From a virus (Duplodnaviria > Heunggongvirae > Uroviricota > Caudoviricetes): DNA of 64,000 bases. Below the pieces are notes generated by a model that was not told the DNA's origin, searched no databases, and saw only the letters and a program-made list of their open reading frames with translations. The translations under genes and the position numbers were made by a program. The stretch is taken from IMG/VR virus record IMGVR_UViG_2565956624_000008, one strand, 5' to 3'. Below, piece after piece: positions 30,870 through 32,417 of the stretch (within the stretch, counting starts at the first letter, position 1; each line of letters begins with the position of its first letter).

Positions 30870-31051
30870 TCAGGGTTTTCGTCATGGTTAGCGACTTTGC
30901 GGCGGTTTAGAAACTGACCATTAAAGTAAATGCAAACGATGATCTGATGATGGTAGCGGCCTAAGAAGCCAGACGCCACGGGGTATGAGTCGTCCCCCGT
31001 CAAAAAATCGACCGCAGAGTGTCCCCGTCTGTGTATTAGGGAACGGGGAGG

Positions 31052-31132
31052 CACAACAGGTAAGGGCGCTGGTGTGATTAACCAGATGAACGAGAAGGGG
31101 CCATCTGTTGGTCAGCGTCCTTTCCTGTTGCG
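31052..31132 (+). repeat. Hairpin repeat unit 0 (CACAACAGGTAAGGG family)
   Basis: Imperfect inverted repeat ACAGGTAAGGGCGCT ... AGCGTCCTTTCCTGT. Confidence 0.5.
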
Positions 31133-31335
31133 TCTTCTTTTCAGCGTAACAGCGGTGCTTAACAGCACTTTGGGTACAGTTCCACGAATTTACGGGTATA
31201 TCCCGTCATGCTGAAAGCGCTAATCACGCTGGAAGCCAGGGTTATGCATCCCCTGTTACCGAATTGCAGCCAGGGCGCGGTGCGCCGAAAAGCATACGGA
31301 GGTGGAAGCCCTCGCCGGAGACGTACCCGGCAAGT

Positions 31336-31411
31336 GATGGTGTAGCTCAGCGGTTAGAGCGGTTGACTGTTAATCAACGGGTCGATGGTTCAAATCCATC
31401 CACCATCGCCA
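31336..31411 (+). tRNA. tRNA-Asn (anticodon GTT)
   Basis: Manual fold: 7-bp acceptor GATGGTG/CACCATC, D-arm GCTC/GAGC, anticodon loop CTGTTAA, T-loop TTCAAAT, encoded CCA. Confidence 0.9.
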
Positions 31412-31413
31412 AT

Positions 31414-31489
31414 GCCGGTTTAGCTCAGTTGGTAGAGCGCCTGCCTTGTAAGCAGGATGTCAGCGGTTCGATTCCGTTAATCGGCACCA
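31414..31489 (+). tRNA. tRNA-Thr (anticodon TGT)
   Basis: Manual fold: acceptor GCCGGTT/AATCGGC, anticodon loop CTTGTAA, T-loop TTCGATT, encoded CCA; starts 2 nt after tRNA-Asn. Confidence 0.9.
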
Positions 31490-31491
31490 GC

Positions 31492-31578
31492 ACAACAGGT
31501 AAGGGTATTTTGCGACGTCGGAGATCGCCGAGCTTGGCAGAGGGTTCGAATCCCTACGAAGTACCCTTACCGTTGTGA
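31492..31578 (+). repeat. Hairpin repeat unit A (contains a tRNA T-arm-like GGTTCGAATCC)
   Basis: Stem CAACAGGTAAGGGTA ... TACCCTTACCGTTG; not foldable as a canonical tRNA. Confidence 0.5.
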
Positions 31579-31705
31579 TGAATGCGCAGGCTGATGCGCG
31601 AAAGACATTGCAGCTATTGCGGAAAAGAGCTGTTCGGCGGGGCAATTAAACGCCCGTGAGAGTCTGAAATAACCGCAAGCCGGAGATCAGCACCGGTCAT
31701 CACAA

Positions 31706-31775
31706 CACAACAGGTAAGGGCATTCTCCCTTATGGGGCTTGGCTTAAATGCATCGAGTGCTCTTACCGTTGTGAT
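31706..31775 (+). repeat. Hairpin repeat unit B
   Basis: CAACAGGTAAGGGCA ... TGCTCTTACCGTTGTG. Confidence 0.5.
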
Positions 31776-31913
31776 GAAGTGCAGCTCTTTGAAGCAACCA
31801 GAAGATAAGCATCTGGCTTCACAACATAAACCGCAGGAACGACCAATAAACGGTAGTCCGTATGGAGAACACCCCGTTGAGGAAGAGGCCTGGCCGGAAC
31901 CGTAACCGGCACT

Positions 31914-32012
31914 ACAACGTTGAGAACACTGGCGTAACGGGGTCATATCCCAATCTACGAATAAATGTTGCGTTGCAGCGTGACAACCAGTGTTCTCAAC
32001 ATTGTGGTGAAT
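31914..32012 (+). repeat. Hairpin repeat unit C
   Basis: Perfect 14-bp stem GTTGAGAACACTGG / CCAGTGTTCTCAAC around an inner CGTA-AC-GGGGTCATATCCC-AATC-TACG module. Confidence 0.5.
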
Positions 32013-32191
32013 GCACAGGCTGATGTGCCGCAACTACAGTAGTGCGCGCTTTGCGGGGCTTGCTACAACCCTGTGTCGGAGTTCAGCACCGACCATCACA
32101 GTTTGATTCTCTGGCATGAGCATAACGCTGAAATAAGTCCAGCCTGGTGCGGCCCGATCACCCGCCGTTAGCTCCACGAAACGGAGCACGT

Positions 32192-32268
32192 AACAGGTAA
32201 GAGCATTCTCCTGTAACGGGTTCATATCCCAATCTACAGGTCCACCAAGAATGCTCTTTCCGTTGCGG
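32192..32268 (+). repeat. Hairpin repeat unit D
   Basis: Nested stems AGAGCATTCT/AGAATGCTCT and CCTGTA/TACAGG around GGGTTCATATCCC. Confidence 0.5.
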
Positions 32269-32417
32269 TGAATGCGGCTAAGCGCACGCGGGGAAATGGT
32301 TATATCAGTCCATTCATTTCTCCTTGTTTCCCCGTCCACGGTGGATAACCAGCCAAAGGACACCGGGAGGCACCCGGCACCGCAGCTTTTTTATTCGTTA
32401 AATAATGGAGTGAGAGG

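Follow-up and report, generated by a model that had tools for sequence, protein, structure and literature searches.

What does the leader of the ban operon encode in phages of the P1 family? In P1, a much-studied phage, about 1.3 kb of this leader is annotated as two doubtful proteins. The same interval is present in IMG/VR record IMGVR_UViG_2565956624_000008 (Caudoviricetes), of which a stretch of 64,000 nucleotides was analysed (called the window here); a preliminary description made from the letters alone had noted hairpin repeats there around a pair of tRNA genes. We find that the interval is an array of two kinds of conserved, folded non-coding RNA module, termed H and M, which alternate along the sequence and are shared and swapped by many unrelated phages. 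The preliminary description missed M, the widespread element, and with it the link to the small RNA STnc100. The modules and tRNA genes of the array, in window coordinates, are:

31046..31139, plus strand: unit A, an H hairpin; -48.4 kcal/mol, z score (z) -5.5; no bulge and no M behind it.
31336..31411, plus strand: tRNA-Asn (GUU), called by ARAGORN; Rfam tRNA, 74.5 bits.
31414..31489, plus strand: tRNA-Thr (UGU), called by ARAGORN; Rfam tRNA, 73.4 bits; its CCA end abuts hairpin B, the H starting 0 nt after the tRNA end.
31491..31577, plus strand: unit B, an H hairpin; -42.3 kcal/mol, z -4.4; inverted repeat I4, with a bulged A.
31572..31706, plus strand: M1, type 1; the minimum-free-energy fold has a four-way layout of closing helix P1 (GUUGUGAUG/CAUCACAAC), AAU, hairpin 1 (GCGCAGGCUGAUGCGC), a central arm and hairpin 2 (GCCGGAGAUCAGCACCGGU).
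31706..31773, plus strand: unit C, an H hairpin; -34.5 kcal/mol, z -4.3; both flanks exact.
31768..31824, plus strand: truncated M-like spacer behind unit C, without hairpin 1; direct-repeat family D2, GUUGUGAUGAAG ... CCAGAAGAUAAGCAUCUGG CUUCACAAC.
31910..32009, plus strand: unit D, an H hairpin; -49.2 kcal/mol, z -5.8; inverted repeat I1 (23 nt, 91% complementary).
32001..32102, plus strand: M2, type 1; folds into closing helix P1, hairpin 1, two central hairpins and hairpin 2, and matches the type-1 pattern.
32189..32267, plus strand: unit E, an H hairpin; -35.8 kcal/mol, z -4.7; inverted repeat I3, and direct repeat D5 in common with unit D.
32264..32384, plus strand: M3, type 2 (STnc100-like); closing helix P1 (UGCGGUG/CACCGCA), AAU, a small hairpin, an insert, CACCGGGAGGCACCCGG, then a U-run; fold z -3.5.

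H is a hairpin of 20-24 bp with conserved arms and an exchangeable interior. Its outer six pairs, CACAAC/GUUGUG, are usually followed by one bulged A and then by 13-16 more pairs that surround the variable interior. Five hairpins with shared flanks had been proposed, and all five do fold: units A to E fold at -34 to -49 kcal/mol with z from -4.3 to -5.8, and for each unit none of 200 shuffled sequences was equally stable. The flanks also repeat. The 5' 15-mer CACAACAGGTAAGGG is found exactly at 31052, 31491 and 31706 and with two mismatches at 32189, a span within 1.2 kb, and the 3' flank CTTACCGTTGTGATGAAKGC is found at 31566, 31762 and 32256, where the chance expectation is 0. The proposal was too broad for two units. 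Unit A has the 5' flank only, since just its 5' arm is as in B and C and its 3' side reads CCTTTCCTGTTGCGTC, and the arms of unit D have diverged by compensatory changes (GTTGAGAACA/TGTTCTCAAC versus GGTAAGAGCA/TGCTCTTACC). The differences found in the D6 copy of unit A are paired changes too. Two further repeats, GCAGGCTGATGYGC and CGGAG(A/T)TCAGCACCG, were correctly described and have two copies each. The larger repeat was misjudged: what recurs is not a module of about 400 bp duplicated as A+B and C+D, but a hairpin together with the next ~100-135 nt, which gives B+M1, D+M2, E+M3 and C with the truncated copy. No further copy of the array modules was found elsewhere in the window.

The interiors of H hairpins form 29 unrelated sequence clusters inside the same arms. 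A T-arm-like hairpin is present in five of the 29 (0.035 expected), and the motif ACGG-N-CAUAW-N-CCAAUC recurs with paired changes in three. Within the array, unit B encloses the T-arm-like hairpin AGGGTTCGAATCCCT, unit D encloses ACGGGGUCAUAUCCCAAUC, a motif that returns with paired changes in loci L050 and L065 (L numbers denote the relative loci that were fetched), and unit E encloses ACGGGUUCAUAUCCCAAUC. The T-arm-like strings noticed earlier are there, but in the second, fourth and fifth units rather than in A, C and D. In the late leader of one lambdoid phage (L068), the H hairpin at 2117-2326 has as its interior a hammerhead-like core at 2138-2184 (CUGAUGA, GUCC..GGAC, GAAAC, GC..GC, GUC), which scores 24.7 bits against Hammerhead_1, under the gathering score of 34.

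M is an element of 100-135 nt behind an H. In type 1 the order is closing helix, AAU, hairpin 1 (GCGCA-GGCUGA-UGCGC), a variable insert, hairpin 2 (GCCGG-AGAUCAGCA-CCGGC), CA and the return strand, and the closing helix reuses the GUUGUG of the H (GUUGUGAUG...CAUCACAAC). The minimum-energy folds of M1 and M2 have one shared multi-helix layout; the closing helix of M2, AUUGUGGUG/CAUCACAGU, includes two G.U pairs. The shared layout suggests a tRNA-like shape for M: an acceptor-like helix leads into a first arm, the centre varies, and the last arm stacks on the closing helix. The loops of hairpins 1 and 2 are complementary to each other (GCUGA/UCAGC). The spacer at 31768..31824 folds no better than its shuffles and therefore looks like a decayed M copy. 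At the H/M junctions (31572-31577, 32001-32009 and 32262-32267), GUUGUG, or AUUGUG or GUUGCG in its place, can pair either with the 5' CACAAC of the H or with the 3' CACAAC of the M. M1 and M2 had zero Rfam matches at E values up to 10, and neither type-1 M nor the H hairpins had a match at the gathering threshold in the window and 18 diverse loci; below threshold, H gave only chance matches to microRNA-precursor models.

Other identities considered for M were rejected. As a small peptide read from GTG ATG AAT GC (MNAQADA...), it is conserved neither in length nor in sequence past residue 7, and the changes track the hairpin, not the codons. The first open reading frames (ORFs) behind 53 M units fall into 46 unrelated groups, which speaks against a gene-specific riboswitch. 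An NCCA tail behind the closing helix occurs in only 20 of 96 distinct strands, the region being simply rich in C and A. M1 is not PasB, which sits among structural genes.

Compensatory changes over dozens of phages indicate that the M and H folds are probably under selection. The compensatory changes in the stems that the preliminary description proposed to look for in homologous loci were found in both modules. In an alignment of the M core (82 distinct sequences, the variable insert swapped for a linker), 87% of cells were in standard pairs, both-sided changes occurred at 20 of 27 pairs and none of 500 shuffles reached any of these measures; when the partner strand was slid as a control, pairing fell to 28-44%. 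The closing helix carries most of the covariation signal, for example GAUUGGAUG/CAUCCAAUC, GAGUGGUCUG/CAGACCACUC and GCAGAUG/CAUCUGC, and hairpin 1 covaries at five of its five pairs. For the H stem (40 sequences), 94% of cells were paired, with both-sided changes at 12 of 20 pairs, values that again exceeded the slid controls and were reached by 0 of 500 shuffles. The pairing between the M loops is kept by both-sided changes in two independent variants (GUCGA/UCGAC in L038, ACUGAU/AUCAGU in L125); these few events suggest that hairpins 1 and 2 make a kissing-loop contact. M units of relatives were identified by regular expressions with pairing checks, their inserts of 20-200 nt being unrepresentable from a MAFFT alignment, and hairpins were delimited with RNAduplex, as ungapped arm matching misses bulged hairpins.

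The modules carry a strand signature. Pairs of the type G.U outnumber A.C pairs, which are G.U on the opposite strand, by 54 to 19 in H and by 44 to 24 in M. No tRNA within 1 kb of a module lies on the opposite strand; the strands agree in 78 of 78 cases for M and in 119 of 119 for H. Together with the RNA motifs in the interiors, these observations make a transcribed RNA of the plus strand a better explanation than an element acting purely as DNA, though the flanks may still act as DNA.

M is widespread. The 137-bp M1 is found at 97-98.6% identity in lambdoid phages (mEp460 and several Stx2 phages) and in the T1-like Klebsiella siphovirus IME207. It is carried by 845 of 5,426 complete E. coli genomes, about one in six, at 715 chromosomal and 236 plasmid places, and among the matches listed no feature is annotated over it. 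A scan of IMG/VR with M hairpin 2 returned at least 120 loci; from all loci we collected at least 136 distinct type-1 M units, of which at least 124 have an uninterrupted closing helix of six or more pairs. BLAST placed type-1 M in 46 Pseudomonas aeruginosa phage records and in phages of Erwinia, Yersinia, Enterobacter, Klebsiella and Escherichia, nearly always unannotated. H was found only in enterobacterial phages, among them a virulent member of the Ackermannviridae. A 22-mer scan of species-representative genomes returned a single Pantoea metagenome-assembled genome and is uninformative on host range.

Close relatives differ by whole modules. The P1 phage and D6 lack exactly M1 and unit C, and 23 bp of the shared flank (...CTTACCGTTGTGATGAA) at the junction belong to both alignment blocks. 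Ro157c2YLVW lacks B and M1 and has an extra segment before D. Module-sized indels with their junctions in shared flanks indicate that the conserved flanks behave as recombination handles.

The modules are placed precisely with respect to tRNA genes. Eighteen distinct H units begin 0-1 nt past the CCA of a tRNA-Thr or tRNA-Ser, five H types being found behind tRNA-Thr, and 12 distinct M units end 1-3 nt 5' of a tRNA, so that the order is M-tRNA-H. The additional tRNAs of relatives (tRNA-Tyr in Ro157c2YLVW, tRNA-Ser in D6) lie between modules, not within hairpins. With respect to transcripts, the modules of mEp460 and Stx2a_1447 lie in the leader that separates cI/oL-pL from the first leftward gene; in L068 the modules follow Q, pR' and tR' and precede tRNAs and lysis genes; and in IME207 they follow a strong promoter and precede tRNA-Ser/Arg.

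M3 differs from M1 and M2 and gave the sole Rfam signal of the array modules, a match of 37.8 bits to STnc100 (RF02076; gathering score 47) over model positions 31-147. The covariance search for a described family that had been suggested earlier thus returned one sub-threshold match, for M3, and nothing for M1 and M2. STnc100 is built like M: its closing helix (..UGGUG / CACCA..) leads into AAU and a first hairpin, and behind a variable middle come the last hairpin (CCGGGAGGCACCCGG), CA and the return strand. M3 has this core architecture by alignment, and its minimum-free-energy fold closes with UGCGGUG/CACCGCA; type-1 M has the same layout with other hairpins. In the D6 copy of M3 the last hairpin shows a paired change (CCUGG/CCAGG). 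The true STnc100 matches that served as positive controls, in HK639 (52.6 bits) and Klebsiella phage K751 (48.8 bits), have an M-like architecture followed by a terminator. M3 does not match the promoter and Rho-independent terminator that STnc100 has of its own (model positions 1-30 and 148-206): hairpin E lies directly on its 5' side and only a U-run on its 3' side, and no promoter-like site was found in 30600-33900. On this sub-threshold match, M3 is most likely an unannotated relative of STnc100.

Lambdoid prophages carry the small RNA STnc100 and a relative of it, PasD, which Hfq RIL-seq brought to light (bioRxiv 10.64898/2026.05.13.724894); no function has been established for either (bioRxiv 10.64898/2026.05.13.724894; PMC12370729). 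Both, like M, are phage-borne and lie near tRNAs and near late or early leaders. They differ in that STnc100 is a free-standing gene while the M units of the array are chained with hairpins and tRNAs, and type-1 M has different conserved hairpins with complementary loops and a much wider host range that includes Pseudomonas phages. By this comparison STnc100 and PasD join a far larger family in which the scaffold is fixed and the insert varies.

The setting of the array bears on what these RNAs might do. The window is a P1-family phage-plasmid, an identity confirmed by the C4 antisense RNA with its a1b1 targets and the sok antitoxin RNA, both at full Rfam score (11140-11346 and 14798-14972). 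RCS47 and hundreds of E. coli plasmids match the 1.55 kb around the array at 99-100% identity, and the P1 phage matches it at 98.7%, one indel aside. The features that surround or punctuate the array are:

30651..30678, plus strand: divalent C1 operator (Op72ab/Obanab of P1), overlapping the promoters P1ban and P2ban; from a consensus scan and the P1 record.
30775..30870, plus strand: dicF-like region, so labelled in the P1 record, ending in a strong intrinsic terminator (terminator scan).
30886..30964, plus strand: module resembling the coding part of transfer-messenger RNA (tmRNA), with the conserved leader ...GAAACUGACCAUUAAAGUAAAU and a tag frame at 30932-30964.
31885-31909: small hairpin GGCCGGA-N-CGUAACCGGCAC, like M hairpin 2, listed for its recurrence before H units.
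32171..32187, plus strand: small hairpin GCUCCACGAAACGGAGC directly 5' of unit E, also found before H units in L127, L232 and L241.
32418..33462, plus strand: cargo in place of the tciABC genes of P1, namely a 78-amino-acid membrane protein and a 275-amino-acid SPFH/Band-7 lipoprotein (PHROG, Pfam and P1 gene order).

The two small hairpins recur directly 5' of H units in L005, L102, L127, L232, L241 and L244; they may be remnants of M or additional module types. The C1 operator consensus is matched at 30651-30667 on the plus strand with no mismatch and at 30662-30678 on the minus strand with two. The P1 reference record has Obanab (Op72ab) and P1ban/P2ban at the dmt end, followed by the 'dicF-like region', trnA and trnT. 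The terminator at 30844-30870, an 8-bp stem followed by T7, lies ~170 nt 3' of the ban promoters and ahead of the rest of the operon. The operator pair, the terminator and the layout of the P1 record place the array, which has the orientation of the tRNAs, within the leader of the ban operon repressed by C1. For the array as a whole, transcription presumably begins at P1ban/P2ban and would have to pass this terminator. On the other side, the cargo ORFs are 32418-32654 (small membrane protein, phrog_1130) and 32635-33462 (PF01145, E 1e-30; phrog_200). Gene order and domain matches confirm, at the level of sequence, the earlier suggestion that the slot between the array and tRNA(CAU)/ban holds swapped cargo, P1 having tciA, tciB and tciC there. 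The operator and terminator on the dmt side had been recognized correctly; the labels upl and plp on the ban side were misplaced, as these are minus-strand ORFs on the array itself and the plus-strand ORFs are the cargo.

We tentatively read the array as an island of processed non-coding RNA, an explanation to which we give somewhat less than an even chance. In it the modules would give paired, protected ends to the products of tRNA excision and keep an untranslated leader structured, and some M units may act as stable small RNAs by way of their insert. The stable small RNAs or processing structures that the preliminary description entertained for the ban operon leader are favoured by the covariation, the excess of G.U pairs and the strand agreement with the tRNAs. 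We envisage that the array is co-transcribed on the plus strand with tRNA-Asn and tRNA-Thr; that RNase P, cutting at the 5' end of a tRNA, would leave an upstream RNA ending in an M closing helix; and that the RNA 3' of a tRNA would begin with an H, which could be cut in the manner of an RNase III site or could protect against decay that depends on the 5' end. Dense folding could, in addition, shield the untranslated stretch from Rho and RNase E. Some M units might be freed as stable small RNAs that act in trans through the variable insert, by analogy with what is reported for the Hfq-bound STnc100 and PasD, and the conserved flanks could serve as handles by which phages gain, lose and swap modules. 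Passage of transcription beyond the terminator, the nucleases involved, the stability of the RNAs and any action in trans are points that we infer.

Several known systems offer parallels. In T7 early RNA and in rRNA operons, RNase III stems of ~20 bp, repeated, mutually similar and with a small bulge, lie between the functional RNAs of a long transcript, and the rRNA stem encloses the RNA that is released. The predicted H stems, with 20-24 pairs and one bulge, likewise form at least 20 bp of nearly continuous double-stranded RNA between functional RNAs, but the H arms are far more conserved and enclose many unrelated small interiors. In the tRNA-microRNA genes of murine gammaherpesvirus 68 (MHV68), in MALAT1-mascRNA and in mitochondrial transcripts, a tRNA abuts a structured RNA and tRNA-processing enzymes make the end of its neighbour. 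The array has H 0-1 nt past a CCA and M 1-3 nt before a tRNA; the known examples are eukaryotic or viral. GOLLD and ROOL are large, ornate structured phage RNAs of unknown function that typically lie beside tRNA genes; the array modules have no sequence or Rfam match to them, are much smaller and modular, and occur in proteobacterial phages. The array offers a testable handle on the role of structured phage RNAs beside tRNA genes and on the processing and protection of long untranslated phage transcripts.

Six observations weigh against this explanation. A strong terminator (30844-30870) stands between the ban promoter and the array. The outer six pairs of H and the closing helix of M are mutually exclusive, because they compete for one GUUGUG; the competition may be a switch or a mere trace of how the modules were joined. 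The arm sequence of H is conserved far beyond the needs of a simple stem, which suggests a protein partner or homogenisation at the DNA level. In many non-enterobacterial phages M lies 18-60 nt ahead of the start codon of diverse, unrelated genes, often with no tRNA nearby, so that tRNA punctuation cannot be its only role. The array interval goes unmentioned in the single P1 transcriptome study found. Finally, most alignment rows came from pattern scans that fix part of the sequence, and related rows inflate the significance of the shuffle tests.

The processed island, an effect on transcription elongation and a DNA cassette are not mutually exclusive. That the modules act in cis on elongation, as a structured leader that makes RNA polymerase terminator-resistant (like the put RNAs of HK022 and HK639) or by denying Rho a loading site, is in our judgement unlikely. 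Their position fits: modules lie just behind early or late promoters and often beside terminators, of 123 M units, 41 are followed by a terminator-like hairpin at a distance of no more than 160 nt, and the order terminator-M-terminator-gene is found in L134, L144, L234 and L242. The genes behind M are mutually unrelated, as a signal that acts on operons in general would predict. A boxA-like string, UGCUCUUA, is present in the 3' arm of H; it is, however, base-paired and is missing in units A, B and D, and a boxA/boxC-like reading of UGCUCUUACC-GUUGUGGUG as a general feature was rejected on the same grounds. In L128-type phages M stands in the leader behind a pL-like promoter, the slot of the annotated putL-like RNA of HK639, and M and put share this promoter-proximal leader slot in phage operons with no known antiterminator protein. 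Size and fold differ, a put RNA consisting of two stem-loops in ~70 nt (PMC9378689), and there is no sequence similarity to the HK639 putL-like RNA: the best blastn-short match is 11 nt long (E 0.04), with no match in any fetched locus. A put-like device also needs no run of several copies, and since the strong P1 terminator is upstream of the modules, they cannot help the polymerase to pass it.

A bolder possibility, which we consider doubtful, is that type-1 M represents a class of phage RNA, widespread yet undescribed, that is tRNA-shaped and has a conserved loop-loop pseudoknot, and that it is an autonomous device which forms, with H carriers and the tag-like module at 30886..30964, a portable RNA cassette system in P1, lambdoids, T1-like phages, Ackermannviridae and temperate Pseudomonas phages. 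As such a device M could punctuate transcripts, processing itself or being guided by RNase P, or it could be a leader that acts on RNA polymerase or Rho to reprogram them; the cassettes could install and express small RNAs and tRNAs. If true, this would add a new layer to phage mosaicism and a possible tool for the expression of stable RNAs. M1 has clear relatives in phages of Pseudomonas, Erwinia and Yersinia.

It is rather improbable that the units matter as DNA, as imperfect palindromes that are recombination sites or small mobile elements (attC-like or MITE/ERIC-like) moving tRNA or other cassettes. Like H, the attC and ERIC/MITE elements (70-130 bp) are imperfect palindromes whose ends are conserved and whose centre varies; they have an extrahelical base and are gained and lost like cassettes. 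H is attC-like in form: its outer box, CACAAC/GTTGTG, has 6 bp, and it has an extrahelical base and, in the middle, 30-170 nt of variable sequence. Compared by eye with the generally known attC boxes RYYYAAC...GTTRRRY, the outer boxes agree only partly, GCACAAC at 6 of 7 positions and GTTGTGR at 4-5 of 7, and a single bulged A takes the place of the spacer. H also starts exactly at tRNA 3' ends, the classic targets of integrases, the 29 interiors in the same flanks are unrelated, and M1 is near-identical in unrelated phage types. That close relatives differ by indels the size of a module, joined in the repeated flanks, would agree as well, but the junctions resemble plain homologous recombination in a 17-23 bp repeat, with no target-site duplication. 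M is no palindrome: it has several covarying helices and loop-loop pairs, and this non-palindromic partner and the strand-specific RNA signals do not fit attC, ERIC or MITE. The excess of G.U over A.C on one strand, the tRNA orientation (197 of 197) and the RNA motifs of the interiors (T-arm, hammerhead-like) also speak against DNA elements. No dedicated recombinase is common to the P1-like, lambdoid, T1-like and Ackermannviridae carriers, and no integron integrase is among the flanking genes seen (dmt, the SPFH-domain gene and ban), in both cases with no systematic search made.

It is more improbable still that the hairpins are decaying tRNA genes of a once larger tRNA array. Real tRNAs adjoin them, the arrays of relatives hold the additional tRNA-Tyr (Ro157c2YLVW) and tRNA-Ser (D6), T-arm-like hairpins are enriched in H interiors, and the interiors in L103 and L104 are tRNA-like with an acceptor-like stem. 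Yet, as the preliminary description had itself observed, none of the units is a canonical tRNA: ARAGORN and Rfam call only tRNA-Asn, tRNA-Thr and tRNA(CAU), and no unit matches the Rfam tRNA model at E values up to 10. Its suggestion that degenerate tRNA remnants might explain the region fails as a general account, since the arms show conservation and covariation, a T-arm is missing from 24 of 29 interior types, and the extra tRNAs of relatives lie between modules.

Scarcely credible is the reading of the P1 reference record, also found in RCS47, that minus-strand genes for the proteins Plp and Upl occupy the interval (window 31460-32363; P1 NC_005856 69472-70041): in Ro157c2YLVW the Plp frame is broken into three and in the window into two, D6 has no Upl, Plp aligns to the opposite strand too, a palindrome artefact, plp overlaps trnT, and neither protein matches Pfam. 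Plp has no PHROG match either, and the two PHROG families that Upl matches were built from such annotations. The earlier statement that the region has no credible ORF holds, and plp and upl are probably annotation artefacts; the correction extends to the many P1-like records into which they were copied.

The module at 30886..30964 has a leader that reads GCGACUUUGCGG..UUUAGAAACUGACCA.AAAG.UAAAU, then GCA AAC GAU, and a tag frame, GCA AAC GAT GAT CTG ATG ATG GTA GCG GCC TAA (ANDDLMMVAA*). Related modules are found in L247 (~1840-1925), L243 (~8350-8460), L038, L116, L147 and L176. Six tag variants were seen, each of 10 codons plus TAA (ANDDLMMVAA, ANDDVVLMAA, ANEEMYLAAA, ANDDLMLMAA, ANEEMYLAVA and ANDNTFLAVA); the five that are not from the window come from T1-like and Ackermannviridae phages, and the length, the AN(D/E) start and the A/V-A end are all kept. 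As in a tmRNA, a resume codon and tag frame are followed by a stop in a hairpin loop: judged by eye, a small hairpin has the UAA in its loop, its stem differs between variants by paired changes, and there may be a pseudoknot behind it. Rfam tmRNA_permuted (RF04321) matches with 24.1 bits (gathering score 47), over the tag end only, skipping 111 model positions that include the tRNA-like domain. ARAGORN, in its default and -ps modes, found no tRNA-like domain (acceptor G.U, T-arm, CCA) in 30886-30964, and its call, made only at 80% of the normal threshold, has an unconvincing acceptor and no CCA. Since no tRNA-like domain was found by either program, a full tmRNA is rejected and the module is not a demonstrable tmRNA.

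Some further observations concern the relatives. In the virulent Klebsiella phage K751 (L247, Ackermannviridae), positions 972-4000, ~3 kb with no annotated genes, are dense with modules: the tag-like module, an H at 1998-2084, an M at 2082-2175 and the true STnc100 match at 3497-3711. At ~1640-1706 the same phage has a tRNA-like mini element (acceptor GGCGAAG/CUUCGCC and a T-arm) that ARAGORN does not call. Near the immunity regions of mEp460 and Stx2a_1447 there are Rfam isrK matches (67 bits; L003 82-158 and L004 27-103, minus strand), and a sub-threshold isrJ-like match lies over the pR'-tR' transcript of HK639 (L246 44281-44353).

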